Source: Mytilus trossulus (taxonomy: Eukaryota). From it: a DNA stretch of 64,000 nt. Location: positions 12,400,001 to 12,464,000 of the forward strand of contig NC_086383.1 in the NCBI RefSeq assembly GCF_036588685.1, written 5' to 3'. A program made the position numbers and the translations under genes. Below are positions 372-30,800 of this stretch, piece by piece (the first letter of the stretch is position 1; each line of letters starts with the position of its first letter). The notes beneath the pieces are model-generated. The model made no database searches, was not told the DNA's origin, and worked only from the letters and a program-made list of their open reading frames with translations.

Positions 372-3300
372 CTATCAAAAAAGAAGACAATTGTTTGAGT
401 ACAATCATTGCATCAATATCCTACAGTATATTGACATAAGAATTGGTACAACCTCGACCTCAATATTCAAATGGGTGATTTAAGCCAGCTTCTTAATATT
501 TTTCATGATCATCAGAAAATCCGTATCGACATTTTTCCAAGTTTGCAGTAATAAAATTTGACGCGTGAATGTAAGAAGTAAGTTTTCATATCCTTATCTA
601 TTTTCCCGTTTTTTTTCATGTTTGATTGAATCATTTTTAAAAGTGTTGTAAATGTAACTTATATTAATATATTAATTTGTACGTGACGGAAGTAACATCT
701 TCCGACGATTGTATTATGCAGACAGGAATGAGACTATTTTATTTTAAATAGCGGTCATATACTTATTTTAACGAAAACAACATTCATTGGGAAAGTAGTC
801 ACACTCTTTTATTTTATTTCTAGGATATCATTCTGTCAAAACTCCTTGTAAAAGTAGAACAGTTTTAGCCGACAAGTAACCCACCTTCACATTGTTTTCC
901 ACTATATCCAGTTGGACAGGTACAAGCAAAACTACTTCCGGTAGGAGTACATTCACCCCCATTCGAACAAGGCGAACTGCTGCATGGTGTGACTATGAAA
1001 AAAGAAAACAATTGTTTCAGTACAAACATGGTATCAATATCCTACTATATATATTGACATAAAAAATGTTACCACCTAGACTTCAATATTGAATTGGTTG
1101 TTTTGAACGAGCTTCCTAAATTAATTTCGTGATCACGTCATAACCTGGAGAAAATCAATACTGACATTAACAAATTTGCAGTAAAAAAACTCATGAATGT
1201 AAGAAGTAAATTTTAATAACCAAATCTATGTCACGCAGTTTCACGTTTGAAATATTTTAATTGTTTTCTTTATTTTAATATCTCAATATTTACATATCTG
1301 CAGTAACTCCTTTCGACAATTCTTATATGAAGACGCAAATAAGACGATTCTGTTGTCATATACCTATTTTTAATGAAATCAAAATTCATTGTTTAAAGTA
1401 GTCATAATGATTCATTTATTTAGAAAAAAGTGTATTTTTGTTCCATCTTTAATTTAAAAACCCGAAAGTCAACCTATATTTTAATTAATCTCACTTTGAC
1501 ATTGTTTTCCACTATATCCATTTGGACAGGAACAAACAAAACTACTACCAGTGGGCTTGCATATTCCCCCATTTACACAAGGCGAGCTGTGGCATGGTGT
1601 AACTAGAAAAAAATAAAATATTATTATTGAAATGCAAATATTTAATCAAATCCTAGGATATATGAGAATCATTGTCTCGGTTCCTTGACTGCTTAACACA
1701 GTCTAGATAGAACTACCTGTTTACAAAATGATTGTAGTAATCGCGCGGCAATTACAAACCGTGCGCAAAAGTACAGAACATATGATAGCATTAGTGTTTT
1801 CGTTGAGTACCATATGAATATCCGATTTGACAAATGTTTTCGTCGTTATAATGCTTTTTTCTCTTGGGGTTGCAATAACCGTTATCGGACACAATAGCTT
1901 TGTTTTTGTCATTTTTGTTGCAATATTACAAATATAAATAGATGTGTACTTTGTAAGTACAGCTGTGTCACAAACCATGTCTCTTTTAGTGAGATGTATA
2001 ATATTCATGAATAGTTTGTTTTCATAACGTCCTAGTTCCCTTATAGGATCTCTATGTATCTTCCCGTAAAGACAAAACTTGAAAATGTTACCATTATACA
2101 TTAACATAAGTAGCGGCCGCCTTAAATTCTGAGGTAAACTCAAAGTTAAGGAAGGATAGCACAGAATATCAGTATATTTTTCAAACTTTTAAAAGTGTAC
2201 AGTTTCTGTTTGTCTTTTTTCATTTTTAGCCTTGGCATTGTCAGTTTGTTTTAGATTTATGAGTTTGATTGTCCCTTTGGTATCTTTCATCCCTCTTTTA
2301 AGTTGTAAAAATAGTTCCTTTGGCTAATTGCATTATCTATATCAAAAGAAATGCATCATATATAGTAACCCACCTTCACATTGTTTTCCACTATATCCAG
2401 TTGGACAGGTACAAGCAAAACTACTTCCGGTAGGAGTACATTCACCCCCATTCGAACAAGGCGAACTGCTGCATGGTGTGACTATGAAAAAAGAAAACAA
2501 TTGTTTCAGTACAAACATGGTATCAATATCCTACTATATATATTGACATAAAAAATGTTACCACCTAGACTTCAATATTGAATTGGTTGTTTTGAACGAG
2601 CTTCCTAAATTAATTTCGTGATCACGTCATAACCTGGAGAAAATCAATACTGACATTAACAAATTTGCAGTAAAAAAACTCATGAATGTAAGAAGTAAAT
2701 TTTAATAACCAAATCTATTTCACGCAGTTTCACGTTTGAAATATTTTAATTTTTTTCTATATTTTAATTTCTCAATATTTACATATCTGCAGTAACTCCT
2801 TTCGACAATTCTTATATGAAGACGCAAATAAGACGATTCTGTTGTCATATACCTATTTTTAATGAAATCAAAATTCATTGGTTAAAGTAGTCATAATGAT
2901 TCATTTATTTAGAAAAAAGTGTATTTTTGTTCCATCTTTAATTTAAAAACCCGAAAGTCAACCTATATTTTAATTAATCTCACTTTGACATTGTTTTCCA
3001 CTATATCCATTTGGACAGGAACAAACAAAACTACTACCAGTGGGCTTGCATATTCCCCCATTTACACAAGGCGAGCTGTGGCATGGTGTAACTAGAAAAA
3101 AATAAAATATTATTATTGAAATGCAAATATTTAATCAAATCCTAGGATATATGAGAATCATTGTCTCGGTTCCTTGACTGCTTAACACAGTCTAGATAGA
3201 ACTACCTGTTTACAAAATGATTGTAGTAATCGCGCGGCAATTACAAACCGTGCGCAAAAGTACAGAACATATGATAGCATTAGTGTTTTCGTTGAGTACC

Positions 3301-6300
3301 ATATGAATATCCGATTTGACAAATGTTTTCGTCGTTATAATGCTTTTTTCTCTTGGGGTTGCAATAACCGTTATCAGACACAATAGCTTTGTTTTTGTCA
3401 TTTTTGTTGCAATATTACAAATATAAATAGATGTGTACTTTGTAAGTACAGCTGTGTCACAAACCATGTCTCTTTTAGTGAGATGTATAATATTCATGAA
3501 TAGTTTGTTTTCATAACGTCCTAGTTCCCTTATAGGATCTCTATGTATCTTCCCGTAAAGACAAAACTTGAAAATGTTACCATTATACATTAACATAAGT
3601 AGCGGCCGCCTTAAATTCTGAGGTAAACTCAAAGTTAAGGAAGGATAGCACAGAATATCAGTATATTTTTCAAACTTTTAAAAGTGTACAGTTTCTGTTT
3701 GTCTTTTTTCATTTTTAGCCTTGGCATTGTCAGTTTGTTTTAGATTTATGAGTTTGATTGTCCCTTTGGTATCTTTCATCCCTCTTTTAAGCTGTAAAAA
3801 TAGTTCCTTTGGCTAATTGCATTATCTATATCAAAAGAAATGCATCATATATAGTAACCCACCTTCACATTGTTTTCCACTATATCCAGTTGGACAGGTA
3901 CAAGCAAAACTACTTCCGGTAGGAGTACATTCACCCCCATTCGAACAAGGAGAACTGCTGCATGGTGTGACTATGAAAAAAGAAAACAATTGTTTCAGTA
4001 CAAACATGGTATCAATATCCTACTATATATATTGACATAAAAAATGTTACCACCTAGACTTCAATATTGAATTGGTTGTTTTGAACGAGCTTCCTAAATT
4101 AATTTCGTGATCACGTCATAACCTGGAGAAAATCAATACTGACATTAACAAATTTGCAGTAAAAAAAACTCATGAATGTAAGAAGTAAGTTTTAATATCC
4201 AAATCTATTTCACGCAGTTTCACGTTTGAAATATTTTAATTGTTTTCTTTATTTTAATATCTCAATATTTACATATCTGCAGTAACTCCTTTCGACAATT
4301 CTTATATGAAGACGCAAATAAGACGATTCTGTTGTCATATACCTATTTTTAATGAAATCAAAATTCATTGTTTAAAGTAGTCATAATGATTCATTTATTT
4401 AGAAAAAAGTGTATTTTTGTTCCATCTTTAATTTAAAAACCCGAAAGTCAACCTATATTTTAATTAATCTCACTTTGACATTGTTTTCCACTATATCCAT
4501 TTGGACAGGAACAAACAAAACTACTACCAGTGGGCTTGCATATTCCCCCATTTACACAAGGCGAGCTGTGGCATGGTGTAACTAGAAAAAAATAAAATAT
4601 TATTATTGAAATGCAAATATTTAATCAAATCCTAGGATATATGAGAATCATTGTCTCGGTTCCTTGACTGCTTAACACAGTCCAGATAGAACTACCTGTT
4701 TACAAAATGATTGTAGTAATCGCGCGGCAATTACAAACCGTGCGCAAAAGTACAGAACATATGATAGCATTAGTGTTTTCGTTGAGTACCATATGAATAT
4801 CCGATTTGACAAATGTTTTCGTCGTTATAATGCTTTTTTCTCTTGGGGTTGCAATAACCGTTATCGGACACAATAGCTTTGTTTTTGTCATTTTTGTTGC
4901 AATATTACAAATATAAATAGATGTGTACTTTGTAAGTACAGCTGTGTCACAAACCATGTCTCTTTTAGTGAGATGTATAATATTCATGAATAGTTTGTTT
5001 TCATAACGTCCTAGTTCCCTTATAGGATCTCTATGTATCTTCCCGTAAAGACAAAACTTGAAAATGTTACCATTATACATTAACATAAGTAGCGGCCGCC
5101 TTAAATTCTGAGGTAAACTCAAAGTTAAGGAAGGATAGCACAGAATATCAGTATATTTTTCAAACTTTTAAAAGTGTACAGTTTCTGTTTGTCTTTTTTC
5201 ATTTTTAGCCTTGGCATTGTCAGTTTGTTTTAGATTTATGAGTTTGATTGTCCCTTTGGTATCTTTCATCCCTCTTTTAAGCTGTAAAAATAGTTCCTTT
5301 GGCTAATTGCATTATCTATATCAAAAGAAATGCATCATATATAGTAACCCACCTTCACATTGTTTTCCACTATATCCAGTTGGACAGGTACAAGCAAAAC
5401 TACTTCCGGTAGGAGTACATTCACCCCCATTCGAACAAGGCGAACTGCTGCATGGTGTGACTATGAAAAAAGAAAACAATTGTTTCAGTACAAACATGGT
5501 ATCAATATCCTACTATATATATTGACATAAAAAATGTTACCACCTAGACTTCAATATTGAATTGGTTGTTTTGAACGAGCTTCCTAAATTAATTTCGTGA
5601 TCACGTCATAACCTGGAGAAAATCAATACTGACATTAGCAAATTTGCAGTAAAAAAACTCATGAATGTAAGAAGTAAATTTTAATAACCAAATCTATTTC
5701 ACGCAGTTTCACGTTTGAAATATTTTAATTGTTTTCTTTATTTTAATATCTCAATATTTACATATCTGCAGTAACTCCTTTCGACAATTCTTATATGAAG
5801 ACGCAAATAAGACGATTCTGTTGTCATATACCTATTTTTAATGAAATCAAAATTCATTGTTTAAAGTAGTCATAATGATTCATTTATTTAGAAAAAAGTG
5901 TATTTTTGTTCCATCTTTAATTTAAAAACCCGAAAGTCAACCTATATTTTAATTAATCTCACTTTGACATTGTTTTCCACTATATCCATTTGGACAGGAA
6001 CAAACAAAACTACTACCAGTGGGCTTGCATGTTCCCCCATTTACACAAGGCGAGCTGTGGCATGGTGTAACTAGAAAAAAATAAAATATTATTATTGAAA
6101 TGCAAATATTTAATCAAATCCTAGGATATATGAGAATCATTGTCTCGGTTCCTTGACTGCTTAACAGTCTAGATAGAACTACTTGTTTGCAAAATGATTG
6201 TAGTAATCGCGCGGCAATTACAAACCGTGCGCAAAAGTACAGAATATATGATAGCATTAGTGTTTTCGTTGAGTACCATATGAATATCCGATTTGACAAA

Positions 6301-9300
6301 TGTTTTCGTCATTATAATGCATTTTTCTCTTGGGGTTGCAATAACCGCTATCGGACACAATAGCTTTGTTTTTGTCATTTTTGTTGCAATATTACAAATA
6401 TAAATAGATGTGTACTTTGTAAATACAGCTGTGTCACAAACCATGTCTCTTTTAGTGAGATATATAATATTCATGGATAGTTTGTTTTCATAACGTCCTG
6501 GTTCCCTTATAGGACCTCTATGTATCTTCCCGTAAAGACAAAACTTGGAAATGTTACTACTATACATTAACATAATTAGTGGCCGCCTTAAATTCTGAGG
6601 TAAACTCAAAGTTAAGGAAGGATAGCACAGAATATCAGTATATTTTTCAAACTTTTAAAATAGTACAGTTTCTGTTTGTCTTTTTTCATTTTTAGCCTTG
6701 GCATTGTCAGTTTGTTTTATATTTATGAGTTTGACTGTCCCTTTGGTATCTTTCATCCCTCTTTTAAGCTGTAAAAATAGTTCCTTTGGCTAATTGCATT
6801 ATCTATATCAAAAGAAATGCATCATATAAAGTAACCCACCGTGACATTGATTTCCACTGTATCCAGTTGGACAAGTACAGGCAAATCTACTTCCGGTAGG
6901 AGTACATTCACCCCCATTCGAACAAGGCGAACTGTTGCATGGTGTGACTATGAAAATAAAACACAATTGTTTGAGTACAATCATTGAATCAATATCCTTC
7001 AATGTTTTGACATAGGAATTGTTGGAACATTCACTTCAATATTCAATTGGTTGCTTTGAACGAGTTTCCTACATTATTGTTTGTGATGACATAACCTAGA
7101 GAAAATCAAAACCGGCATAACCAAGTTTGCAGTTACAAAAAAAACCCGCAGGAATGTAAGAAGTAAATTTTGATATCCTTATCTATTTCACGTTCTTTTC
7201 ACGTTTAATTGAAAAAGTAATAAATCTTATTCAAATAAATTCGGATCTTCCCTCATCTGATAACCAGCATGGTTACGGTATTACTCCTAAAAGTATTACG
7301 AGGAGTGTGAGGTGACACGTCCAGGTATTCAAGCGATTTCCTGTCAGGCTTGCAAGTTCATTCATCGTGTCACTTCTGTAGCTATTAATCAGTTTACACA
7401 GCCGATAACTTATAACTTTCCATTTTGAACTAGCAGATGCATGTATAATATGCATCCGTCTTGCGTGTCCGAAAGTGATATAATACATGAGTCATTATTT
7501 ACTTAACTCATACGCTTGTTTAAAAATAAAATTTTTGGTGTAAAGAATATATTATCTATAAAAATATAGATAATAATACCCCCCCCCCCCCAAAAAAAAA
7601 AAGATTTGAAGAAATGAAAATCTATTTACATATTTTTACCAAGGGTTAATTTCTCGTTGTCAATAGTAAAGTACAGATTGAAACATACCAGAAATATTGA
7701 TTTAAAAAAAATCTACGCACTTGTCGACGATTCGTTATACGCCTGGGTAGAAAGTTACGGAAGAACTATAGCGCAATTTAAAATATATACATGTATACAT
7801 AAGAAAGAAACATGCATTTTGTGAAAATTGGGGTAAAAGTTTTGGTAATAGACTAGTCCACGTATGTCAACAATATGTAATCAACGAATTCGATAGACTT
7901 TTGTATACCAAAAGAAGAAGAAGAAGAAGAAGAAGAAGAAAAGAAACAATTTGATTTAAATGCAGGTCGATATACAACTTGCTTTGGTTCATCGAAGTTA
8001 TGAACATAGTAAAATCACAGATTTATATATCACTTCGATTGTTCTCGAATAAAGGAAGAAATTCGTCATCATCACAATTGTTCCGACATTCATGTAATAA
8101 ATATGCAACTGGACGTACACTAATAATCCCCGAGGGATGTTAATATTTTCCAGGGAAACTATTGAGAATTTTTAAAAGTTTTAAATTAATTTCGGGATTT
8201 ATTTTCTTTCTTGATATTCAATGACAGAAATTCAAAGAATAAACGGCTTGTCCGCTTTAGGGGTATTCTTGCCAGATAAACAGACTTATGATATAATTAA
8301 AAAATAGGAAAAGATGACATTAAATTCGTTGTCTTTTGTTTTTAAACATCTCTGGTCAAATATTTACTTATGTAGTATACATTGTGAGACGAAGATAGTT
8401 TTAATCAGGATGTTCTTGATTATGAATAAATTTGGTTGAAGTTTTTCATATTTGAAAAGAATGTCTTTTCGTAATTTTCGATTCCATTCCAAGAAGATCC
8501 TTACATTACCTGTTAATTCTTTAAAACCTCTTAAGTACAAAAGTATTTTTCTTTATTCGTACATATTATATTTCGCTTCAGTATGGCTTTCAAAAGTCTA
8601 AATGTAAGTGTTCTCGTACATTGTTTTACCTAATAAAGACAATCAAAATGCTTTTGTAAATGTATTTCTAATTTCTAAATTCCCCTTTTTTATGAAACAT
8701 AAATCAAAACCAAGAGGTGTATATCATTTCATTGTGACACATGAAATAAGTTTCCCGTTTTTAAACGAAAATTGTGTATTTCTAAGTAAATTAACTTTTT
8801 TGAATTCAGAATAAATAATAGCACCCAATATAATTAAATAATTCCACGGCGATTTATTTCTATTTTTTTACCAGCTTGAAGATGTATTTTAAATATGTGT
8901 ATTAAATGCTTCCTTAATTTTTTTTTAGTCCACTTATCCAAATAGACAGTCAAACCTTGCAAGGTGTGCCCTGGAGGCGTGGTTAAATACCGAAGTGCAA
9001 ATAACAATTTACCTTTTAACAAGCCATCTACGAATATTGGCACAGAAACATGAATTCACACATCGTATAAATCTAGTCATAGCAGAGATAGTAAAATGTC
9101 AATAAGAGTACACCAACATATTGTCTTTACAATTGTACTTTAATTTGCTCACCTAATCAGTCCGAAAATGCATTAATTAAATTTGAATTTATAAGTTTTT
9201 GTGTTGTCTACAACAATAACTCGAATATATACGTTTAACTTAGAAAATTTATCTCATAAATGTGTACAATTGCACGTCTGTGCGTTTTATCTTCTTATTA

Positions 9301-12300
9301 TAGGATGGTTATTAGATCAAAAATGATAAAGCATAAGTCATCGGCGAGCTTACGATAATGTTAAAATATGATTAAAAACCAAGACTTTTAATGATTGTAT
9401 TTTAAATCCAAGCATGCAAAAAACAGGAGAAAACGTCGCGACTTACAGGAAGTAGTTAATAGTTTTTCATTTATTATCGAATTTCTCCTTTATTACTGCA
9501 CATATAGCGATAAAACTTTGAGAAAATATATATATTATGTCATTATGAACGTATTCAAACCATAAGTAAAAATCGTGAATTTTCCCTTTAAAAGTGTTGT
9601 AAATTAAACTTACTAAAGTATATTAATATCTCAATATATCTCAAGTAATTTCTTCCGAAGACAAGAATGAGACTATAATATTTTAGATAGCAGTCGTATA
9701 CTTATTCAATGAAAACAAAATTCATTTGGTCAAACTATTTTATTTATTTCTAGGATATCATTCTGTCAAAACTCCTAGTAAAGTGGTACAGTTTTAGCCG
9801 ACAAAGTAACCCACCTTCACATTGTTTTCCACTATATCCAGTTGGACAGGTACAAGCAAAACTACTTCCGGTAGGAGTACATTCACCCCCATTCGAACAT
9901 GGCGAACTGTTGCATGGTGTGACTACGAAAATAAAAGACAAATGTTTGAGTACAATCATTGCCTCATTATCCTACAGTATATTGACATAGGAATAATTAC
10001 AACCGTGACCTCAAGATTCAATTAATTGATTTAAGCCAGCTTCTTAATATTTTTCATTATCATGAAAAAATCAATACCGACATGACCAAGTTTGCAATAA
10101 CAAAAAAAACACGTGAATGTAAGAAGTAAATTTTAATGTCCCTATCTATTTTCACGTTCTTTTTATGTTTGAATGAATTATTTTAAAAATTTTGTAAATG
10201 AAATTGATATGAATATATCAATATTTACATAACGGAAGAAACTCCTTCCGACGATTGCTGTATGCAGACAAGAATGATACTATGATACTTCAGATAGCAG
10301 TCTTATACTTATTCAATGAAAACAAAATTCATTTGGTCAAACTATTTTATTTATTTCTAGGATATCATTCTGTCAAAACTCCTAGTAAAAGTGGTACAGT
10401 TTTAGCCGACAAAGTAACCCACCTTCACATTGTTTTCCACTATATCCAGTTGGACAGGTACAAGCAAAACTACTTCCGGTAGGAGTACATTCACCCTCAT
10501 TCGAACATGGCGAACTGTTGCATGGTGTGACTACGAAAATAAAAGACAAATGTTTGAGTACAATCATTGCCTCATTATCCTACAGTATATTGACATAAGA
10601 ATAATTACAACCGTGACCTCAAGATTCAATTAATTGATTTAAGCCAGCTTCTTAATATTTTTCATGATCATGAAAAAATCAATACCGACATGACCAAGTT
10701 TGCAATAACAAAAAAAAAAACACGTGAATGTAAGAAGTAAATTTTAATGTCCCTATCTATTTTCAAGTTCTTTTTATGTTTGAATGAATTATTTTAAAAA
10801 TGTTGTAAATGAAATTGATATGAATATATCAATATTTACATACAGGAAGAAACTCCTTCCGACGATTGTTGTATGCAGACAAGAATGATACTATGATATT
10901 TCAGATAGCAGTCTTATACTTTTTTAATGAAAACAAAATTCATTCGGTCAAACTATTTCATTGATTTCTAGGATATCATTCTGTCAAAACTCCTAGTAAA
11001 AGTGGTACAGTTTTAGCCGAAAAAGAAGTTCCTATTGGTAATTGCATTGTCTGTACTAAATAAATGCAGGCTATAAAGTAACCCACTTTGGCATTGTTTT
11101 CCACTGTATCCAGAAGGACAGGTACAAACAAAACTACTACCAGCTGGTGTACATTCTCCCCAATTCGAACAAGGCGAACTGTTGCAAGGTGTGACTATGA
11201 AAATAAAAGACAATTGTTTGAGTATAATCATTGTATCAATTCATTGACATAAGAATTGTTACAACCGTCAATATTGACTTCAATATTAAAATGGGTGATT
11301 TGAACCAGCTTCCTACATTATTATTCGTGATTACGACACAACCGGGAGAAATTCAGTACCGACATAACCAAGTTTGCAGTAACAAAAAAAAAAACGATGT
11401 GAATGTAAGAAGTATATTTGAATATCTCTATATATTTTCACGTTCTTTTCGTGTTTGATTGAGTTATTTTAAAGGTCTTTCAGTATTAATATCTCAATAT
11501 TTACGTATCGGCAGTTACTCCTTTCGACGATTCTTATATGAAGACGCGAATATGACGATTCTATTTTAAATAGCTGTCTTTTACCTATTATTAATGAAAA
11601 CAAAATTCATTGGTTAAAGTAGTCATGATAGTTACATGAATTAATTTCTTTAGAAAAAGGGTATTTACGTTCAATCTTTAATCTAAAAACCCGAAAGTTA
11701 ACCTATATATTAATCAATCACACTTTCACATTGTTTTCCACTATATCCATTTGGACAGGAACAAACAAAACTACTACCAGTCGGCGTGCAGGCTCCCCAT
11801 TTACACAAAGCGAGCTGTGTCATGGTGTTCCAAGAAGAAGTAAAATTTATAATTGGCGTGCAAATATTAAATCAAATCCTAGGATATATGGGAATATTGT
11901 CTCGGTTCCATGACTGATTACCACAGTCTAGATAGAACTACTTGTTTTAGAAATAATTGCAGTAATCGCGCGGCAATTACAAACCCTGCTTAAAAGTACA
12001 TAATCTATGGTAGCATTAGTGTTTCCGTTGAGTATAATATGTACTTCAGATTTGACAAATATTTTCGTCTTTATAATGCATTTTTCTCTTGGCGTGGCAA
12101 GTACCGCTATCGGACACAATAGATATGTTTTTGTCATTTTTATTGCAATAATACAAATGTAAATAGATGTACACTTTGTAAATACAGCAGTTTCACAAAC
12201 CATTCCTCTTTTAGAGAGATAAATAATATTCATGAATAGTTTGTTTTCATAACGTCCTGGATCCCACTTATGATATGCATGTATCTTCCCATAAAGACAA

Positions 12301-15300
12301 AACTTGGAAATTTTGCCAGTATACATTAACATTATTAGCGGCTGCCTTCAATTATAAGGTAAATTCTAAACTAGGGAAGGGATAGTACAGAATTTTAGTA
12401 TATGTTTAAACTTTTAGAAGTTGGAGGCAGATAAACGGGAATTTTCAACACAGTTGTATATATCTTGTGCAAGAAAATTGGTACCGTTATTTTATTACTA
12501 CCACTGGGTTGATGCCTCTGCTGGGGGACTATTAGTCCCCGAGGGTATCACCAGCCCAGTAGCCAGGACTTCGGTACTGGCATGAAAATACGGATTTTTT
12601 GTGTTATTAAAATTTGCTGTTACAAAATATAAGAAATCATTATAAATTAAGGAATGTATCTCCCTCATGCAAAGCTCTGACTCCTTTCACGGATTTGGCC
12701 ATACTTTTTGGACCTTTTGGATTATACCTCTTCATCTTTTATATAAGCTTTGGATTTCAAATATTTTGGCTACGAGCACAACTGAAGAGACATGTATTGT
12801 CGAAATACGCACCTGGTGCAAGAAATATTTTTTATGATCATGAGAAAATCTGTACCGACATTTTTCCAAGTTTGCAGTAACAGAAATGACGCGTGAATAT
12901 AAGAAGTAAATTTTAACATCCTCATCTATTTTCTCATCTAACGTTCTTCTCATGTTTAATTTAATTATTCTAAAAGTGTTGTTCATGTTACGTATATTAA
13001 TATATCAATATTTGCGTCCGACGATCGTAGTATGCAAACAAGAATGAGACTATTATATTTTAAATAGTAGACTATATTTATTTTAATAAAAACAAAATTC
13101 ATTGGGTAAAGTAGCCATACTCTTTTATTTATTTCTAGAATGTAATTCTGTCACAACTCCTAGTAAAGATGGGACAGTTTTAGCAGAAAAAGGAGTTCCT
13201 TTGGTTAATTGCATTGTCTATAGTAAATGAAATGCATCATATAAAGAAACCCACCATGACATTGATTTCCACTGTATCCAGTTGGACAGGAACAAACAAA
13301 ACTACTACCAGCCGGTGCACATTCACCCCCATTCGAACAAGGCGAACTTTTGCATGGTGTGACTACGAAAATAAAAGACAACATTTAGAGTACAATCATA
13401 GTATCAGTATCCTATAATATATCTTTTCTTGTGGTTTTTGTTTTCTACAAATGAATACCTTCTTTTTCGGCAAAACAATATCATGACTTAGAATACCGGC
13501 ATTTGATTTTTTTGGGGGGATATCTATACAGGTTATGTTTTTTTTTATATAAAACGAGGATGTTTCTGTTGAGTTTTTGAAATCGAATTGCATAAAACAT
13601 ACCCTTCCTTTGAACCATGTACTTTATTTTCGAAAGACTGTTTTATTTTGTGTCAAAAGCACCCCATTTCTTATTAGAATGAATATTCCGTGTGTACTCA
13701 ATTTGCTTCAACGAATACTTTATGCCGGTCAACTATATTTTGCTTTAAATCCTTGATAAAATGTTGAACATGCATAAAAAATGTGTTTCGCAAACTTCTA
13801 GCTCATTGTTGATTTTGATTCTATTGGGTTTTTTTCCGAACCAAGTATCAAAAATGTTGGACATATTGTAAAAAATAAACCAAATCATAAGTTTGTCTAA
13901 GGTTTAGTATGTTGGTACTGTTTGTAACCCTGAACTTTGCCCAATTGATTCCAATATCCCATAGTGTGTTTCTTTTTCTATTGGGAATAATCTATTCAAA
14001 TTCAATAAAATTTTCCTAATGCTTTAAAACATGTATCCAGAAAGCAAAATGTTTGCACCCAGACACCCAGACACCAAACATTCATACTGTAAACATAGTT
14101 GGAATTCGTTGCTTATCGCCTAACAAATGTTACAACCTTCACATCTGGATCCATTGTATCCATCACTGCAAGCACAGATAGGTAATTTCCCAAGTTCAGT
14201 GCAAGTTCCATTGTAGAAGCAAGGTTCTTCAGAACACGGCGTTTCTAAAAGAAAACATATATGTTATCACGAGACAATCTAATGATTTTATTAAGCTAAA
14301 TCCTTCTCTTTAGGTGTTTCTCAGACCCTTGCATAATCGGAAGATGGAAATTCTGTTTTTAATCATTTTTTTACAAAATTTTGGTCTCATATCAACAGGT
14401 ATAGATTCAGTGTTAAGACTTCAGTTTTTATGGACAACATACAAAAAACAATACATAGAATAAAGCAAACAATAAATTCACATAGTTAAATATGTGGCTG
14501 CTGTTTTTCCAACTCTTGATCAAGTCAATAACAAAATTGCTAAATAACGAAAAGAATGCAACACTAACAGAATAAAGAAGAACAATCAATGAACAACAAA
14601 AAGACAAATAAATAAGAATCATGAATCCCGAAAAAAACAGAAGCTACGTGTGAGGGAATAAATTACATGTTTCTTGTAAGATACTCGCCGTGAAAACAGT
14701 TTGATATGAAAACAAGCTTTTGGTTTTGAAATTTCCAACATTTGACTGACAAAAAACTCAGCAAATATTTAAGAGACAATTTTTCATTACAAAATTTGTT
14801 TATTTCTCTCATAGTTGTTACTAATATTGTACAAAATTCAATTAAAAAGATCAAATTGTGTTGTCCCAAGAACACTTTTAAAATGTTTAAATCCTTGAAA
14901 AAGCTCCAAATTATCTCCCTTTAGTGAAAAAAACGTCATGTTTTGGGCACTAAACTGAAATATCTATTTTAAGTCATCGGTGACCTTTATTTTTGATTTT
15001 AAAAAAAGCTGTGCTCAAATTAAACTTTTGTAAAATTCAAGCGATATCTGTAATTGAGTTCTTTTTTTTTTCGATATTACATTTTTTCTTTTATTAGTTC
15101 AACAGAAAAAAAGAACCGAAACAAAAATGCATAATTCTTTTGAAGGCAAAATATGAACTTAAATTACGGTGACCCCATATTTTAAAAAAAATTTTTTTTT
15201 AGAATCAGACATGTCAGATAAAGTTTATTTATAAAAAAATCCTATATTTGAACAAACAAAAAAGATTTATACCCGCGATCCCACTTTAAGCAACAGGATA

Positions 15301-16988
15301 CACTAGACCTGACAAAGAAATGATTGTAAAGAAAACTACATTTTTTCTTCCTGCTTCTTTTTTTGTTTTTTGCTGGGGAAGTCCTATATTTCGTAAAGAT
15401 TCTTGATGTAACACGATGTATATTTGTTCTGCAGAGCCAATGTAACAATGCAGCTTTTACTATATTGTTACACTGGCTACAACAATAACCATTTACGTGA
15501 CAATGATAATTTTAAGTGTTCATTGAAAACGATATGATTTAAACGGTAGAGATGTTGTCGTAAACAAGTATTTCATTCAAGGTTAGAACATGATTTGGCC
15601 ATCATATACACGTTTCATTCTCTTCTTCCAATCTCATTTTTTTTACTCAAATAGAGAATAACAGAATAAACCTAGCTGCAATGCATCCTTAAATAAAGTC
15701 AATCTTTAGCTGCTATACTGGGGAATACATCTCTCCAAGCAATCTTTTTATTTAAAGGCAACAGTAGTATACTCTGTTCAAACTCATAAATCCATGGACA
15801 AAAAAAAAATCGGGGTAACAAACTAATACCGAGGGAAACGCATTAAATATAAGAGGAGAACAACGACATAACACCGAAACCCAACACACACAGAAACGGA
15901 CCAAGCATCAGACAAAATCCCACGAGAATAACAAATATAACATCTTAACATCTTTATCAACGATGGTCTTGTGTCAGTTTACTTACCTCATAATTGGTAG
16001 GTGTGTGTTCGACATAAGCCGAGGTCGTGATAACCAAATGTAAGAAAAGTGGAGGACTGCTTTTATCCCAAGTATGTGTCATTTAAGATTTATAAACAAA
16101 GAATGGTAAGATTGGAATATTGTATCCGAGAGACACACTTTCCTGTCGCTATTACATGGTGAACGATAACATCAAAGAGTAAAAGGGTAAATACAAAAAA
16201 GTGAGTCATTATAGATTATACAATCTAGTGAATTAATTTTAAGTAGACGTGTAGATTTTGTTTGTATCTAAAATTTTATTGAAGACTGTCTTTCTAGTTT
16301 TAGTTACGGTACGGTACGGTACAGAAATTTAGGCAAATAACTTTATTTCAAGTGCAAACTCTTATACTTTCATCTAGAAACTGTTGAAATCTTAATTCTA
16401 TTCTTTAAAACAGAGGATGAAATAGGTATGCATGTCATATATGAGCGGTAAACAAATATGTTATCAAAATTGATAAATACCATTGTTTTTCAGCAGCAGA
16501 AACATAGTTGTTCCAGCTATAACACCAACCAAAAGAAATCCAAATATGAAACAAGCCAAATGTTTTCCTCGCCGACTTTTGACAGTTATTTGGTTATAAC
16601 AAATGTTGTTCAAATGTGGTAAAGAGCAAGTAGTAGGAATCACTGCTAAATCATCTATACTCTCGTATATGTCAGAGTTACAAGAAGTTCGGGTTTGTAT
16701 TTCGCTATAATATACATCTTGTTTAACCTCTGCTGTGTTATTATCCAAAATAGTAATTTTTTCAGAAGTTTGAATGTGCTCCTTTGTACCATCTCTTTTT
16801 TCAATTGCTCTACTGGTCGTGTTTTTAACAATAATATCTGATTGTTGATTGTTTTCTAAGGTATCATAACTGCTCCTCGATATTATTAAGTCCGCTGGCA
16901 ATAAAGGTTCATATGTTTTGTTCTCATGAAAAGTTTGTTGTCGTGAACAAGTATTTCCATCAAAGTTCGAACATGATTTGGCCATCAT
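264..16988 (-). CDS. Type II membrane receptor, copy 1 (Tyr-motif tail, TM, >=15 EGF repeats; 3' end beyond left edge, C-type lectin presumed)
   Basis: Exon 1 16988-16481 ends at a phase-1 GT donor. It is followed by 108-nt AG..GT phase 1-1 EGF exons at 14137-14244, 13255-13362, 11087-11194, 10423-10530, 9815-9922, 6840-6947, 5963-6070, 5353-5460, 4474-4581, 3863-3970, 2984-3091, 2374-2481, 1495-1602, 885-992 and 264-371. Exon 1 and first EGF are clearly paralogous to copy 2. Confidence 0.85.
885..6947 (-). repeat. ~1.49-kb tandem array (about 4 units), each with two EGF exons (types A and B) and a Penelope-like 3' tail fragment
   Basis: Type A exons start at 885, 2374, 3863, 5353 and 6840 (periods 1489, 1489, 1490, 1487). 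Type B exons start at 1495, 2984, 4474 and 5963. The introns are nearly identical too. Confidence 0.92.
6840..6947 (-). CDS. EGF exon
   Basis: 108 nt, ag/gt boundaries, 6 Cys. Confidence 0.8.
7214..9586. mobile_element. ~2.4-kb unclassified insertion in an EGF intron
   Basis: The usual ~0.5-kb intron breaks after ...gtttaattgaa and resumes at tttaaaagtgttgtaaat near 9587. Contains an (AAG)n tract at 7912-7943; no convincing ORF. Confidence 0.45.
9815..9922 (-). CDS. EGF exon
   Basis: [35 protein letters not shown], ag/gt boundaries. Confidence 0.8.
10423..10530 (-). CDS. EGF exon
   Basis: 108 nt, ag/gt; 608-bp tandem duplicate of the 9815 exon. Confidence 0.8.
11087..11194 (-). CDS. EGF exon
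   Basis: [35 protein letters not shown], ag/gt boundaries. Confidence 0.8.
11724..11830 (-). pseudogene. Dead EGF exon (pseudo-exon)
   Basis: Homologous to the 1495-type exon, but the acceptor is changed AG->TG, the first Cys codon is TGA instead of TGC, and a 1-nt deletion leaves 107 nt. Confidence 0.8.
12467..12826 (+). mobile_element. Non-LTR retrozyme monomer, subfamily B (~349 nt), with degenerate type I hammerhead at 12776-12819
   Basis: Terminal redundancy gtgcaagaaa at 12467 and 12816. Ribozyme reads CTGAAGA-GACA tgtat TGTC-GAAA; stem III and the cleavage triplet are mutated. Confidence 0.75.
13255..13362 (-). CDS. EGF exon
   Basis: 108 nt, ag/gt boundaries, 6-Cys EGF. Confidence 0.8.
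14137..14244 (-). CDS. Copy 1 first EGF exon ([36 protein letters not shown])
   Basis: 108 nt, ttttag/gt boundaries, 6 Cys; counterpart of 40565-40672. Confidence 0.85.
15530..15640 (-). pseudogene. Fragmentary duplicate of the 5' part of receptor exon 1, inside intron 1
   Basis: gaacatgatttggccatcatatacacg...tcttccaatctca matches 16968-17016. Confidence 0.65.
16481..16988 (-). CDS. Copy 1 exon 1: cytoplasmic tail (YEPL, YDTL, YSEI, YESI) plus signal-anchor TM
   Basis: ATG at 16988 with an in-frame stop upstream; the track's start at 16994 is GTG. Basic RRGKH precedes hydrophobic [23 protein letters not shown]. Donor G|gtattt is phase 1. Confidence 0.85.
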
Positions 16989-19360: not shown

Positions 19361-19817
19361 TTCTAATATAGTCCATTCATACACTCGGGGACTAATAATG
19401 TACATTAAAAAAATGATTTGTTTTCGGAATTTATGTTCACAGTTTGACCAATCTGGACGGGGTGATTTTTAGGAGAACTTTCGAGAAAGGATTTTACCAT
19501 CAATATTTGTCTAATGTGTCCTCGTGTAAACTTGTCTCAGATATGCTAGCATATTGCTTTCTCACATTTATACACTTGTATAATAAGACTCTCGAACAAT
19601 TAAACGTATTTAAAGTATCAAATTATGTTTATTTATCAATGTATCTGAAATGTATGGTATTTGTGTTTCATCACTGAATTCTCTTTAAAATTATGTTCAA
19701 TATTTTATATTAACCATTATTACATAGTATTATCCAGTAAAATCTGGTAAAACTCGAGTTCTCCCAGTACTCAATTCTGTGCTGGGCAATACTCATAAAA
19801 CTCATAAAACCTCTATC

Positions 19818-20180
19818 AAAACTCTCATATATGTCAGAGTAACAAGAAGTCCATATTTTCATTCCGATATAATAATAATCTTGTTCCAATTTCGTTTCGT
19901 TTGGTTATTGTCCAAACTAGTAAATCTTTCAAAAGTTTGATTATGTTCCTTTGAACAATGCCTTTGTTCTATTCTTCCCCTGGTCGTGTTTTAAAAGTAT
20001 TGTAAGATTTTTTAACGGTTTGCAAGATATCATAATTGTTTTTCGATTTTACCAAGTCCTCTGGTAGTACAAGTTCATACCTTTGGTTTTCATAGAAAAT
20101 TGGTTTTGGTGAGCAAGTCTTTCCATCAAGATGAACAAGTTTTGTCCATCAAGGTTAGAACATGATTTGGCAATCATATA
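19818..20180 (-). pseudogene. Third, truncated and frameshifted copy of receptor exon 1
   Basis: MIAKSCSNLDG start and YDIL/IYES motifs are recognisable; an internal duplication shifts the frame; no TM segment follows. Confidence 0.75.
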
Positions 20181-20902
20181 CACTTTTTTCTATACAAATT
20201 TCAAATCCATATTTGTTCTATCAATAAACGGTTGATACGTCAAACTACATTTCCACAAACAGACATTATAAAATCGACGTGCAGCGGTTTTCCTTCAGAG
20301 AGGAAATTTCATTTTCCATGATTTACTGTATAATACAAATATAATACTAAAATTTCCTTATTGTTACACAATGAAAATCTGAAGTGTCTCAATATCTATA
20401 TAAAATATATAGATGAAAGGATAACAGAGCAGATTGTCAAATAAAGGCAACTGAAGTATACCGCTGTTCAAAACTCGTAAATCTGTGGACAAAAAAACAA
20501 AATTGGGGTAATAAACTATAACTGAGGGAAACGCATTAAATTTAAGAAGAGAACAACGACACATCATTAAAATGTAACACATACAGAAACGAACTAAGCA
20601 TTAGACAAAATCAAATGAGCATAACAAATATACCATCAAAACCAAATACATGAATTTGGGATAGAAAAGTACCGTGACACGTCTTTTAGTAATATGAATT
20701 CACACTCAAATATCAGAAGACGAAAAAACGACACAACGGAAATACAACGTTAAAATGTTACACACACAGCAACGAACTACGATATAACAATGGCCATTTT
20801 CCATTTCAAACCGAGAAAATATTGTCAGCTGAGGCGAGCCAAGGTTGACAAAGGTTTTTGATGTGTACCAATCTCCATCATCCTCTGGGCTATTTCTCAT
20901 TC

Positions 20903-23030: not shown

Positions 23031-24605
23031 TTGAAAAGAAACTCGTATGAAATGGGTACGTATAACATAGTAAAACTCATTAAAAATACCAGGCTTCTTA
23101 AAACACAGAATAAGGTGGCCTTAGCCCTCAATTGGGTGACAGTCACATAGTTTTATCTTATTGACAAAAATATGTCAGAAACACCAAGACTTAATAAGCA
23201 AAAAATTGCAAAATTTGGGTACAGCTAACCATTTTTGTTTTATAAAAGTGCTATAAATAAAGTTAGAGAAGATACCATGACGACATTTTAAACACAAATT
23301 TCGAATGGAAAATGACAACAATACGTCAAAAAGAAGGAAAGACAATAAGATCAAAAAAATATCTCTTCATAGAAAATTTTAAAAAGTCAAAACGAACCGT
23401 ATCAATAAAACCAGAATTATCTTAGGTTCTTTGGAAGGGTATTACAATTTTTTGAAGACATTAAAAAATATAATCAGGTTAGACTGTCCCTTTTAACTTT
23501 CTCCAAATAATTTTAAAGAAATCTGCATTCATAACTATCATGTGATTGCTAAGGTAGCTCTTATTGGTTTATCTTTTGTCTAGAAGTAAAAAGTTGGATA
23601 AGAGTGGCACAATCTTTAACTAGTGTTAAACATAATATGTATCGTTTGGATAAACTGATCGATATCAAAGCACACAGAAAGTAACAAATATTCCTTCCGT
23701 CCAGTATCTACAGTAAAAATAATTCAAACGGAAAGTCCTTAAACTCAATAGCTTAATCAGATAAGACGAATGGAAAGAATGTCATATTTGTGATTTGAAA
23801 CAAGCATTTCCTTATGTCAAAAATTGTGAGTTAAAGCTGGGTTTATGGCTAGCTAAACCTCTCACTTGTAAAATAGCATTATTTTGGCAACAATGTATAA
23901 GAAACACAAAAATACAATGTACATAATATGTAAAAACGAAAAAATTGAAGAACAGCATTCTACATTGTTTATAATCTTTATCACTATAAACACAAGCAAC
24001 AATGAAAAATAGTATGGCATGTTCAATCTGTAAACACAGCAAATACGCAAAAATGAAAGACGAACATACGAAAAATGATCAACGTGAAAGCACAACAACA
24101 CTATGGCGAGATGGTTAAATACCGAGCCACGCCAAAAGATTATTACCACAAATAGACTTAAAGTAGAACTGTTATATCAAACTTAACTCGTTGTCTCTTC
24201 TTGTGTTGCTACATAACTCAAATCAATCTGAAAATAAACAATTAACACTGAAATAAGTGTATATCAATTGTGAACTGTTTGTGCAGTCAGATAATTGAAA
24301 CATTTTTCGAAATCTACTTTGAATATGTGCATTAAAAGAGCATGCTTTGTTTAATTACTAGCTTTTTGTTGAGTAATATCACCATAAGTCTTTATTGAAT
24401 TTGCAATTTTCCAATAATTGTTTAGAATTTATCTTTGTTTTAATAAAAAGAAATTCATGACATCTGAAGCGTTTTATCCTGTCAAGCACTTCAGACAAAA
24501 CTTCCCATTTGATTGCATATAAGATTAAAGCTATCACTGGAATGATGAACAATCTTTACGAATCATTTTACGAATGGATAGCAACTGTAAGGTACAGGCA
24601 TCTTC

Positions 24606-24859
24606 TTACGTAGAAAAGAATAAAGATTTAGAATATACTAACGGTCTTTCGCATATGAAGCGATAATCAAATGAACATTTGTCATCATTCCATTCATTAT
24701 CTAACTCGTCATCAATGGTCAGACAGTTTTCGTTTCCATCTTGATTATTTGGTTCGTGTACAGTACGTGTATGCCAATCAGTTACTGTAAACCTTTGTCC
24801 ACTAGTTGTCCATAACCACACACCTTCATTTGCCTGATCTGATCCACCTAGCCAAAAAG
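24606..24859 (-). CDS. C-type lectin domain exon 3 (terminal)
   Basis: FWLGGSD...EPN...ENC...WNDDKC...FICE; polypyrimidine-cag acceptor at 24860. Confidence 0.9.
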
Positions 24860-27800
24860 CTGAAAAAAATGAATAGTTAGTAATCAAAAGTACCAGGATT
24901 ATAATTGATAAACAACGTGTTATTCAAGAAAAAACTTTTTATTAAAAGTCATATACAACATATCCAAATTAAACTGCACGCCTCAAATACGTCAAACACC
25001 ATTATTTTCCAAAAGTATACACATTGAAGAGATTCAACATGGTCAAAAGTGATATATGTCAGGGGATTTTTAAAATTGCTGTTAGTGATTTTCCTCATTT
25101 TCCACATTTCATTCTGGTTGACCTACTTTGAAGAACATATTATTTTGAATTTATTTGTAATTTGTATGTACATCATATCTTAAATATTGTCAAATGAGTG
25201 TTGAAGAAAACTAAGAATCAGTCAATTTAAACTTAAATCCACCACTAGGCTTAAATGTAGGTCAAATATTTTTTTATCTTTTTAACATATTTTCAGTCAG
25301 AAATAAGTATGACATATGATCAGCATAAACACCAATACTGCAACCTGATTTCGATTCAAATAACGCTTAAGATTTCAATCAATTATCAATCACTCGAAAT
25401 TGTTTGAAAAATAGATCGAAACTAATGTAACTTGTTTATAAAATTGAGACTAAATATTTACTGTGAGTCTAAATATACCATGTGATATTAAGATGAGATT
25501 GAGTCTTCGAAATAAGTAGTATTTGATGATAATTGATCTGTTTGAAAAACAATTCTGATGTTTTGAAATCTCACTGACCATCGGAAACAAAAAAGATTTG
25601 TATTTTGTTGGGCAGGGATGTTAGAATGTAGAGTCCCATGGTCAGTGAGTTTTCACACGATTGATCGTTCTCTGTATTGTTTCTATAATATTATGTTCCA
25701 CATATTGTAAGTAGAATTTAGAGAATAAAAATAGAAACGTTTGTTTTTATATGGGCTGAGGCTACGTAGAAAGTGTGAGCTAACTTTCTTTGACCCGGCT
25801 ATGTTTTTACACTGGCGGTTGCGATTGATGGTATCTATATAATTTGTATGAGTCTGTATGATTAATGCGACGTTTGTTACAAAGTTGGAAAGGACGTGTT
25901 ATAAGTACATTCTAGTTGTTTGTGTTAGCTTTCACTTCCTCTCCCTCCTTCTAGTAGTAGTTTTGTACGCTTGATACTTATGTAATTATATAACATGTTG
26001 ACATTGATACATATGTTTGATCTTTATTGGATTTTTTTATACTTTCATTATATAAAATGTATTCGATCTTTCGCACAACCTCGTTTGTTGTTTAATTTAG
26101 CTAGTTTAGAAAGTATTTATTTTAGTACGAATGAAATGAGGCACATGTAGAAAATAACATACTTTTGGTAGATCTACTTGATAAATTTATTTATTTCCAT
26201 GTAGATTCATGTTTCAATTTATTTATCAAAGTTGCTCAACTCACACCATTATACGATCGCAAACTAACAGTTCAAAATTAGGTGCCCAAAAAGACCAATA
26301 TCGGCATTTTTTTTGTTTCCAGAGTATAACTTGTGGAACGGTGAATGGATTTCTCTCTAATTTTGTAATAAATAAATATCTAAAAACTGCAATTTTCCAA
26401 TGGTAGGTACATACTTTTTCCATATCTATTGGCGTTTGTCCTAAGAAATGTCATCTCACTTGTTGTTGTTACTTCTGCAAGCATACTACTACGCTGTTGA
26501 CAATAAGACTGGAAAGTAAAATTGGTATAAATTTAAACCGCGATAATGGTTAATAACTGTTTAATTCATTGCATTCAGTAGCAAAAAATAAACCTGGTTT
26601 TTACAGGGGGAAAAATGATAATAACATTTGCCTCGTTTAATGATTTCTTGATTGACAAAATATTTGTTACGTTCGGAGGACGTGTTTTTCAACAGACTGT
26701 CGGCATTCCAATGGGCAAAAAACTGTGCCCCTTTAATTGGCGACTAGTTTCTTTATTATTATGAGGCTGACTCCATGCAAGCACTTCTTAGGAAGAAAGA
26801 TAAGAAGTTAGCAATATCCTGTAACTCTATTTTCCTCTATATAGATGATGTTCTTTCACTAAACAATTCAAAATTTGATGACTATGTGGAACGCATCTAC
26901 TAGGATACGAGAGATACAGTTAATTCGGCTTCATATCTTGACTTACATCTAGGAATTGACAATGAGGGTCGGTTGAAAACAAAACTTTACGACAAAAGGG
27001 ATGAGTTCAGCTTCCCAACTGTGAACTTTCCATTTCTAGGTAGCAACATTCAAGCAGTAAATGCATACAGGGTATATATCTTCCAAATGATACGATATTC
27101 CCGTGCTTGCATTTCCTATTATGATTTTCTTGATAGAGGGTTGCTACTCAAAAGGATGCTATTAAACCAAGAGTTCGAAATGGTAAAGTTTAAATCATCC
27201 CTTCGTATATTTTACGTACGCCATCACGAGTTGGTTGACCGTTATGGAATAAGCGTTTCACAAATGATATCGGATATGTTCCTTACGTCGTAACTACAAT
27301 CCTCTTCCCTTTCATGAAGGTGACCTACTGAATTAGACTATTTACCGGATTTGTAATCACATAAGCAACACGACGGCTGCCACATGTTGAGCAGGATCTG
27401 CTTACGCTTCCGGAGCACCTGAGATCACCCCTAGTTTTTGGTGGGGTTCGTGTTGTTTATTCTTTAGTTTTCCATTTTGTGTCATGTGTACTATTGTTTT
27501 TCTGTTTGTCTTTTTCATTTTTAGCCATGGCGTTGTCAGTTTGTTTTAGATTTATGAGTTTGACTGTCCCTTTGGTATCTTTCGTCCTTCTTTTAATGAC
27601 GTTTCTTTTCATCGAATCAACATTTTGAAGATTTGCATCGTCCTTCCATCTTTTTATAAAGATATGGACCTACCATTAAAAAGTGTCAAATATAGCTGAG
27701 AAAAATTCAGGGTGTTCATAAACACACGAAGACTGCAGTTTACTGCGTTTGTACACCACACTTCGGCTGAAGGGATTCTAAGCAAAGCTATTAGCCTGCT

Positions 27801-30800
27801 TATATTCGAATGCGTTATTATTTTGTTATGTGCAATATAATAGAACATTAGTATTTTATCAAATTCTGTGAAAAGAATATAGATAAACAAGATAATTAAT
27901 TTCTTTATATTGGAATTTAATTAACAAGATACATGTTCTCTTGTCGTTTCGTTTAATATTTGAACAGAACTTGTGGACACAATTGTGTTCAAACCATCTT
28001 ACTTTACGACATCAGCCTGTTGAGAATGGTTATATTATATACAAGGTAAGTTGAATCTTTAAAAAACAATGTATTAATTCTTTTAAAAAAGTTATGAAAA
28101 CAGAGATAGAGGATGATAAGGTGAAAATGTCCAATTAACGGATATTGTATCATATAATTCTTCAACGGTAAATAACTTTTTTTTCTACAACCGTATGCAT
28201 TTAAACCAGTTTCGACCAGTTAATTATATTTTGATAAACCATACGTTGATTTTGGACAGTAACATTTTTTTTTATATCAAAGAAAAAGTAAATTACATCT
28301 GCTTTATCGTGTTGGTAATAAAAGTAATCGACTCTCAATGGTAAAAGAGAGACGAACGATACACAAGGGACAGTCAAACTCGAAAATAAACTGACAACGT
28401 CATGGCTAACAATAAAAAGGACAAACAGTAAAACAATAGTACACATGACACACCATAGAAAACTACAGAATAAACAACATGAACCCACCAAAAACTAGGG
28501 TGATCACAGGTGCTCCGGAAGAGTAAGCAGATCCTGCTCGTCGTGTTGCTTATGAGATAACAAATCCGGTAAAAAGTCTAAATCGGTAGGTCACATTTAT
28601 TAAAGGGAAGGAGATTGTAGTTACGACGTAAGGAGCATATCCGATATCATATGTGAATTGGTTATTCCATAACGGTCAACCAACTCGTGATGACGTCCGT
28701 AAAATTAACGAAGAGATGATTTTAACTTCACCATTTAGAACTCTTGATTTAATAGCTTCCTTGTGAGCAACAACCTTCTATCAAGAAAATCATGATATAA
28801 AATGCAAGCACGGGAATACCGTATCAATAGGGAGATATATACACCGTATGCATGTTGTAATGATATTGTAATTATTATGTTTATTTATGTTGGCCTAATT
28901 TATGTTGTATGGCCTGATAGTTGTTTACCAAATAATCTTGTAACTGTGCAGTTTAGGAATCACTGGAACAATCACAGAATGATTAGAACTTTCTAGAATG
29001 ATCCTTATAAAAGATGCGTAATTTAAACTTCTACATTATTCCAGAAACTTCCGTTGTAACTTTCCAGGATTTTCCACAATGTTCCGTTCTAGCGTGTTCT
29101 AGAATAATCCGTCACAACTATATATATACAGACACTAAAGTTAAACTCTCATAATTAAACTTGGACATAGACATTGATAGACATTAGTATTCACAGCATT
29201 TGGATTGACACTTTTATTCTACAAACAACATCATACTGGATTGTTACCTTAGTAGTGAACATAATATTCAGATTGGATTCCGAAAGATTTCCGGATACAG
29301 ATAAAGATAAAAGATTGGACTCATATTTGACAGTTAAGTTGACAGTTATATTTGTGTAAAACTTCTTGTAAACTTTTGTATAATAAATATTGTTAAATTT
29401 TACTATTTATTTGTGTCTTTTGTTGGCTACAATTTAAAGGCGATTTCTGGCCGTAACAGAAATTGGGGGCTCGTCCGGGAGACTGAACATATTTTATTCA
29501 AAATTTGTTTAATATTTTTATTATAACTAGCCAACAAAATTCTACAAAATGGCATTTGATGCTGGTAAATTTTTGAAAACGCCAGACCTGGAGAGTTTTG
29601 ATAATTTAAAGAAAGAGGAATTAGTGTTGCTTGCTAAACAACTGAAATTAGCTTTTAAAGTATCTATGAGAAAACAAATTATAAAAAATTTGGTTATAGA
29701 CAAACTAGTTGACGCAGAAATTTTAGGTGAAGAGGCTCTTGAACTTAAGGTCGAAAATGTTGACGCCTTTAAATTAAAACAGCTTGAATTAGAACATGAA
29801 CTTAGATTAAAAGAACTGGAAATGAAGGAAAGATTGGAAATGGATAAACAAGAAAAAGAAAAAGAAGATGAATTCAAATTAAAACAAGATGAACTTAAAT
29901 TAAAACAGGCAGAACTTGAAATGAGGGAAAGGCTAGAGATGGAAAAACTGAAAATTGAAATGGTCAAAGAAGAAAGCAACACTAAAGTCCAGCCAAAATC
30001 AGATTATTTTGATGCAGCAAAAAATATACGTTTGGTACCAAAATTTTGTGAAAAAACAGTCGACAAATATTTTTCACAGTTTGAGAAAATTGCTAATAAT
30101 TTGAAATGGCCAATGCCGTATTGGACTACGATGCTGCAAAGTGTTTTTGAGGGTAAGGCAGCTGAAATATACTCCGCACTTCCATCAGAAAAAAGTTCTG
30201 ATTATGACACTGTGAAACAGGAAGTTTTGAAAGCCTATGAGCTAGTACCAGAAGCATATAGACAGAAATTTAGATCTTATAAAAAGTTTGATTCGCAAAC
30301 CTATGTGGAATTTGCTCGGGAAAAAGAAGATCTATTTGATAAATGGCTTACTTCAAAGAAAACAAATAACAATTTTGATCACCTAAGACAATTGATGTTA
30401 TTAGAAGAGTTCAAACAATGTGTTCATTCAGAATTAAAAACACATTTAGACGACAAAACTGTTGAGTCAATACATGATGCAGCTGTTATATCAGATAATT
30501 ATACTCTTTCACACAAAAGAAGTTTCAAGGGTCAAAATTATAATACTTCCAGTGGAAATTACAAAAATCAAAGCACTGAGCGTACTGATAGTAAGCCTGT
30601 TGCACAGAATAAGAGTCAGTCCAGTTATAATATGTCTAGTCAAAAATTTGATACTTTTGAGAAGAAGTCACTGATTTGTGCTTATTGTAAGAAGAATGGT
30701 CACCTGATGGCTGATTGTTTTAGACTCCAGAAGAAGAATGAACGAGATAATAAGCCAAAGACCAGTGCTTGTACGACACCTTATATTACCAGTACATTGG

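Follow-up and report, generated by a model that had tools for sequence, protein, structure and literature searches.

The two sets of tandem tyrosine motifs encoded on the minus strand of the 64,000-nucleotide stretch of Mytilus trossulus DNA analysed here (the window) raise the question of whether they are signalling elements of receptors and, if so, whether they operate as ITAMs, as ITIMs or in some other capacity. The answer that we favour, with moderate confidence and on sequence grounds, is that they belong to the first exon of a receptor, predicted to be of type II, in whose tail the tyrosines are likely to be phosphorylated and likely to provide docking sites for a tandem-SH2 kinase (Shark/Syk) that would switch on an immune response. 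The relevant features of the window, in which gene A harbors copy 1 of the tail and gene B copy 2, are the following.

16481..16988, minus strand: coding exon 1 of gene A, with a tail of ~140 amino acids, a basic patch (KSRRGKH), a transmembrane helix and a phase-1 donor.
16857..16913, minus strand: tyrosine pair 1 of gene A, YEPL-x11-YDTL, tyrosines 15 apart.
16656..16709, minus strand: tyrosine pair 2 of gene A, YSEI-x10-YESI, tyrosines 14 apart.
16491..16556, minus strand: predicted transmembrane helix (signal-anchor) of gene A, the top hydropathy window (2.4), with basic residues on its N-terminal side.
264..14244, minus strand: EGF region of gene A, with 15 intact 108-nt phase-1 EGF exons and one broken copy at ~11.7–11.83 kb.
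43910..44453, minus strand: coding exon 1 of gene B, a tail with both tyrosine pairs and a transmembrane helix at 44021–43956.
37870..40672, minus strand: four 108-nt EGF exons of gene B (40672–40565, 39111–39004, 38631–38524 and 37977–37870).
24219..37335, minus strand: C-type lectin domain of gene B (exons 37335–37244, 26508–26415 and 24859–24643, and a short last exon from 24227).
19815..20187, minus strand: decayed, frameshifted copy of exon 1 in which YELV-x11-YDIL is still visible.
15537..15653, minus strand: short decayed copy of the exon-1 start, containing a stop codon.

The interval to which the preliminary description had drawn attention is precisely one coding exon of gene A, extending from an ATG at 16988 to the phase-1 donor at 16481. 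The only hydrophobic segment (residues 144–165) is preceded by the basic patch and an in-frame stop is found four codons upstream of the ATG, so that the protein is predicted to be of type II, with its tail inside the cell; a secreted or a type I protein was rejected on account of the same hydrophobic segment and upstream stop. Four read runs were placed on 12900–17400 and the joints 16481–14244 and 14137–13362 were found, at the predicted sites and with GT..AG ends, in contigs of two of them belonging to two studies (X2 and X4), the absence of the exon 1 joint from X1 and X3 being uninformative; these spliced contigs, whose status as RNA is the guess of the tool, are ~95% alike to gene A (~30 of 570 letters differ). 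Gene A extends past the window, so its EGF exons are at least 15 and its C-terminal domain lies outside. Within its EGF region, positions 875–7206 consist of about four tandem 1.49-kb units of 95–98% identity with two EGF exons each, which may represent a recent expansion of the stalk or, possibly, an assembly artefact.

For gene B, on the other hand, the predicted model is complete, with exon 1, four EGF exons, three lectin exons and the short last exon, all bounded by GT..AG, in an open frame of ~460 residues that is colinear with P0002 of M. edulis save for one additional EGF in the latter. Both this model and P0002 display what is expected of a type II C-type lectin receptor, namely no signal peptide, a single transmembrane segment with basic residues on its N-terminal side and a C-terminal lectin domain. 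In gene B this domain (Pfam Lectin_C, E 7e-11) has intact EPN and WND motifs, which according to PMC5877582 are calcium-site motifs of C-type lectin domains, and is thus predicted to be a Ca-dependent, mannose-type lectin. The clearest difference between the paralogs is the length of the EGF stalk, at least 15 repeats in gene A vs 4 in gene B. Stalk length could affect triggering through size-based phosphatase exclusion.

As to the surroundings, the two decayed copies of exon 1 are placed by the analysis between genes A and B. Intron 6 of gene B contains, on the opposite strand (28856–34942), a young LTR retrotransposon having 603-bp LTRs with 1 mismatch, a 4-bp target duplication and an open 1574-aa frame that matches SCAN, integrase, RT and RNase H, the integrase being ahead of the RT. 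Two open frames, at 22496–22861 (minus strand) and 26904–27293 (plus strand), resemble fragments of non-LTR retroelements by eye and have no Pfam match. At 51124–62625 (minus strand) at least three TRIM-like RING/B-box genes or fragments are clustered, with 60643–62610 constituting a single open 655-aa frame and the remainder being split over frames.

The motifs listed in the preliminary description were found to be correct in both copies upon translation of each exon: the tail of copy 1 (16988–16481) carries its two pairs at 16913–16857 and 16709–16656, and that of copy 2 (44453–43910) has YEPL-x11-YDIL at 44378–44322 and YTEI-x10-YENI at 44174–44121; the NPxY motif is absent from both. In 100,000 composition-preserving shuffles of each tail, at least two pairs spaced 6–12 were obtained in 0.017% of the cases for copy 1 and in 0.012% for copy 2, so that the motifs are real and beyond chance (P 1–2e-4 for two pairs). 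The tail of copy 1 vs that of copy 2 gives a dN/dS of 0.51 (bootstrap 0.31–0.84), which indicates moderate purifying selection. It had also been claimed that the motifs are conserved between paralogs amid a diverged tail; that they are shared is correct, but the two tails agree at 96 of 168 residues (57%) and, taken alone, the two copies are therefore weak evidence for motif conservation, which must come from homologues.

The tail searches returned 4, 12, 7 and 6 matches, and those labelled with a species were all from Mytilus (edulis, galloprovincialis, trossulus, coruscus and californianus), with distant tails possibly missed and with the exception of the weak P0015 (E 6e-4), which was rejected as a hydrophobic chance match. 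Twenty tails were aligned, leaving out the N-terminally short P0003, P0004 and P0014, together with P0012, P0015 and most cluster members; 16 of the 20 entered the tree, from which the truncated or odd P0008, P0010 and P0011, that lose motifs, and the near-duplicate P0033 were dropped. P0012 (M. edulis CAG2209620.1) has several tandem pair-1 units after its EGF/lectin part; it was kept from the tree as a probably mis-joined model, its contig has the length of those of P0008 and P0014, and it is possibly a locus with an amplified tail. The RefSeq models P0003 and P0004 (M. edulis) start downstream of pair 1 and are otherwise nearly identical to P0002, which reflects either an effect of annotation or an allele or isoform devoid of pair 1. 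Pfam scans of both window tails and of P0013 gave no match and the ESM Atlas no usable match for a tail, results that have no bearing on novelty.

The 16 tails of the tree share 38–94% pairwise identity and only 11 of their 135 cytoplasmic columns are invariant; yet the four tyrosines are unchanged in 16 of 16 (parsimony P 2e-5; model-based rate P 0.008). Among the 74 columns at which the two window copies agree, four drawn at random would all be invariant with a probability of 3e-4; of the five shared cysteines, not one is invariant. Pair 1 is conserved also when its +3 positions are included (parsimony P 5e-4, rate P 0.026): YxxL/I is present at Y25 in 17 and at Y40 in 18 of the 20 aligned tails, both halves are kept in all 16 tree tails in the pattern YxxL/I..YDxL, and the spacer is of 11 residues in 12 tails and of 9 in the other 4. 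The acidic residue at +1 is likewise maintained, D41 and E108 being invariant and E26 having changed once.

The situation is different for pair 2, whose conservation, +3 residues included, does not exceed that of the flanks (P 0.19–0.39); the residue at Y93+3 is E in 3 of 20 tails, that at Y107+3 is A or T in 6 of 20, and both +3 positions are L/I/V in register in 8 of 16. Taken jointly, the four +3 positions are not significant (P 0.29–0.53). Tyrosine mutates slowly in general, and the eight tyrosine and +3 positions, for which parsimony gives P 0.001, yield P 0.057 by rate with this property corrected. The comparison of motifs and flanks that the preliminary description had called for thus favors the four tyrosines and pair 1, but neither pair 2 with its +3 residues nor the −2 positions of the presumed ITIMs, to which we return below.

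The same tail is found beneath different ectodomains. Gene models of five Mytilus species (P0007, P0026–P0029, P0032 and P0033) have tail and membrane helix joined to TSP1 and to a domain of ~210 residues, and in P0006 of M. coruscus, a single model and possibly a mis-join, the homologous tail is followed by two thyroglobulin type-1 repeats recognized by Pfam. The ~210-residue terminal domain has no Pfam match and scores 0.93 vs SPRY clusters in the Atlas; its fold model is weak (mean pLDDT 53) and, with this model, the top four Foldseek hits are PRYSPRY (TM 0.39–0.46) with legume lectins and calreticulin scoring close to them, so that we limit ourselves to calling it an SPRY-like beta-sandwich. 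In P0007, P0027, P0028 and P0029 these C-terminal 210 residues follow TSP1 on what is predicted to be the outer face of the membrane; an SPRY domain is as a rule found inside the cell. Unspliced frames of the TSP1 class terminate in GI/GIY where the spliced models enter the ectodomain and the frame of gene A ends likewise at its donor, which points, judging from protein ends, to an exon boundary common to the EGF and TSP1 classes.

All nine tails of the TSP1 and thyroglobulin classes contain a third, middle tyrosine pair ending in YDST. This pair resembles pair 1 (0–2 of 300 shuffles reach its score in each of four tails tested), suggesting that the pairs arose by duplication, and in the EGF class it has been lost by a deletion combined with a Tyr-to-Ser replacement. 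The tails cluster by ectodomain class, the tree of 16 being unrooted and the order of events unclaimed. We tentatively propose, as an idea that may well prove wrong, that a portable signalling exon, consisting of the multi-ITAM-like tail, the anchor and a phase-1 donor, could have come, by shuffling, to be joined to recognition modules of unrelated kinds (an EGF stalk carrying a C-type lectin, TSP1 followed by the SPRY-like beta-sandwich, thyroglobulin repeats) feeding one Shark/Syk pathway, the long-spaced pairs being tuned to Shark and the length of the EGF stalk (4 vs 15 or more) tuning reach.

Whether the pairs deserve the name of ITAM depends upon the definition. The spacers of 11 and 10 residues of both window copies exceed the strict one, Yxx[I/L]x6-9Yxx[L/I] as given in PMC9546547, into which falls the 9-residue spacer of 4 of the 16 relatives; on the other hand, both pairs in both copies conform to the broader YxxI/L-x6-12-YxxI/L applied to Draper (10.1101/198986), their cytoplasmic location following from the predicted topology. 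With respect to the acidic lead-in of D/ExxYxxL/I (PMC6994640), D90 occupies the −3 position before pair 2 in both copies, while N or S is found before pair 1. Of the ITAM-like pairs originally described, pair 1 thus stands as a conserved motif, whereas pair 2 qualifies as a strict ITAM only in part, both its +3 residues being kept in 8 of 16 tails. The proposal that the products are signalling receptors is borne out, at the level of prediction, by the type II topology, by the EGF and lectin ectodomain and by the invariance of the four tyrosines in 16 of 16 tails vs 11 invariant columns of 135, and the proteins probably represent a Mytilus family of phosphotyrosine-signalling receptors coupled to Shark/Syk.

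The mechanism could be envisaged as follows. By the EPN/WND rule the ligands of gene B would be mannose-type glycans, whose binding would bring receptor molecules together in clusters; the tail tyrosines would then be phosphorylated by a kinase of the Src family, pair 1 would engage the two SH2 domains of the kinase (Shark or Syk) in the manner of the ITAM of Draper, and pair 2 would offer additional SH2 sites. The output might be phagocytosis or ERK/cytokine signalling, by analogy with what is reported for oyster receptors with an ITAM or a hemITAM. Invertebrates have been reported to possess SHARK and a Syk-like gene (PMC10253181, PMC13344425).

Three other readings must be weighed, the first two of which can coexist with the one just outlined. 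The tail could be a multi-site phosphotyrosine scaffold rather than an ITAM, each tyrosine serving as the site of one protein with an SH2 or PTB domain (Src-type, Grb2-type in the case of YENI, SHP2) and the pairing being a product of internal duplication. We regard this as rather unlikely, if worth retaining: tyrosines are indeed kept where the +3 hydrophobic residue is lost, as in YEIA/YEIT at Y107 and in the YDST of the middle pair, and the likeness of the latter to pair 1 fits an origin by duplication, but in pair 1 both halves are YxxL/I in every tree tail and the only spacings, 11 and 9, fall within x6-12.

A role of the motifs as YxxPhi signals for sorting by AP-2 or AP-3, in lectin receptors that would be endocytic, seems improbable. 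All four window motifs fit YxxPhi and lectins of the EPN/WND type, like DC-SIGN, are endocytic; however, the tyrosines are invariant even where Phi is lost (YEIA, YEIT, YDST), an acidic residue at +1 would be more in keeping with an SH2 ligand or a kinase substrate than with binding to mu2, and four to six copies at fixed spacings would exceed the needs of sorting.

As for the embedded ITIMs, SSYDTL, VYYSEI and SNYDIL do match [S/I/V/L]xYxx[I/L/V] and DYYTEI fails, as had been noticed, but that list was incomplete, ICYNQI of copy 1 being a further match, for a total of three in copy 1 and one in copy 2; ICYNQI is missing from P0005, the closest relative of copy 1. Such matches come easily, since S/I/V/L make up 26–30% of the tail residues, and occur in just 7 of 20 tails at Y40 and 4 of 20 at Y93; furthermore, the −2 positions that define them have changed 5 times each on the tree vs a mean of 2.56 per column and are among the fastest sites (99% of random column pairs change as little or less), so that neither ITIMs nor a paired-receptor output find support. 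Accordingly, a paired set in which copy 1 inhibits via ITIMs and SHP phosphatases and copy 2 is more activating is very hard to credit, for although the A lineage (window A, P0005 and P0010) retains VYYSEI, as does P0006 in the form VYYSEL, and the B lineage (window B and P0030) has DYY, and ITIM-bearing invertebrate receptors have been described (PMC9546547), the distinguishing −2 site is variable, all four YxxL/I motifs are present in both copies and the ectodomains differ in EGF number.

The reading with which we remain, that of tyrosine pairs docking Shark or Syk, can be compared with known systems. Drosophila Draper is a type I protein with an EGF-rich ectodomain made of EMI and EGF domains, whereas the predicted topology of the mussel proteins is type II, their tip being a C-type lectin; they have two or three pairs, and NPxY is missing from the window tails. 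The ITAM of Draper is formed by Y934/Y949, 15 apart, and recruits Shark via the tandem SH2 domains (10.1101/198986); mussel pair 1 resembles it in that its tyrosines are mostly 15 apart (12 of 16 tails), in fitting YxxI/L-x6-12-YxxI/L and in being accompanied by further tail tyrosines, and an EGF-rich ectodomain is likewise common to both, sequence homology being neither found nor claimed.

The C-type lectin receptors of type II found in vertebrates include Dectin-1 and CLEC-2, which carry a hemITAM, DCIR, which carries an ITIM, and DC-SIGN, which is endocytic. Their stalk is a coiled coil and their tail has a hemITAM or ITIM, whereas the mussel stalk consists of EGF repeats and the tail of complete tyrosine pairs. 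The N-terminal tail, single transmembrane segment, stalk and C-terminal lectin domain are common to both, and the EPN/WND calcium site is as in mannose-type lectins (PMC5877582). Closer to mussels, the oyster membrane proteins CgIgR, CgCLec-HTM and CgCLec-TM1, which also bear tail tyrosine motifs, are reported to signal through CgSyk to ERK (PMC6994640, PMC12842671, PMC13027682); as described there, CgCLec-HTM and CgCLec-TM1 carry a hemITAM, the transmembrane segment of CgCLec-HTM is C-terminal and the single ITAM of CgIgR has a spacer of 8 residues. The matches of our tail searches included none of the three. Finally, the Alr of Hydractinia are, according to PMC9546547, a lineage-specific, clustered receptor family with pseudogenes and ITAM/ITIM tails, characters that the mussel family shares insofar as it is lineage-specific, clustered, accompanied by pseudogenes and endowed with ITAM-like tails; unlike the Alr, whose tails diverge beneath similar Ig ectodomains, the mussel genes have kept a homologous tail beneath different ones.

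ITAM-type signalling in bivalve receptors is already known, so the signalling principle is not new. In the literature searched, mostly open-access titles and abstracts, no description was found of a predicted type II EGF-lectin receptor with intrinsic tandem tyrosine pairs nor of one tail exon on unrelated ectodomains; in a 2025 bivalve lectin review (PMC12842671) the terms “EGF” and “ITIM” both have 0 occurrences.

As far as the sources at hand indicate, few bivalve receptors have a defined kinase link, those described there being from oyster and having a hemITAM or a single ITAM, and the mussel family adds candidates with intrinsic, repeated tyrosine pairs on a type II lectin, whose tails allow a clean test of whether pairs spaced by 15 residues prefer Shark to Syk. 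Should unrelated ectodomains indeed have this tail exon in common, it would illustrate how exon shuffling enables a mussel lineage to connect new sensors to immune signalling, and the family would represent a natural set of chimeric receptors plugging new sensors into one Shark/Syk pathway.
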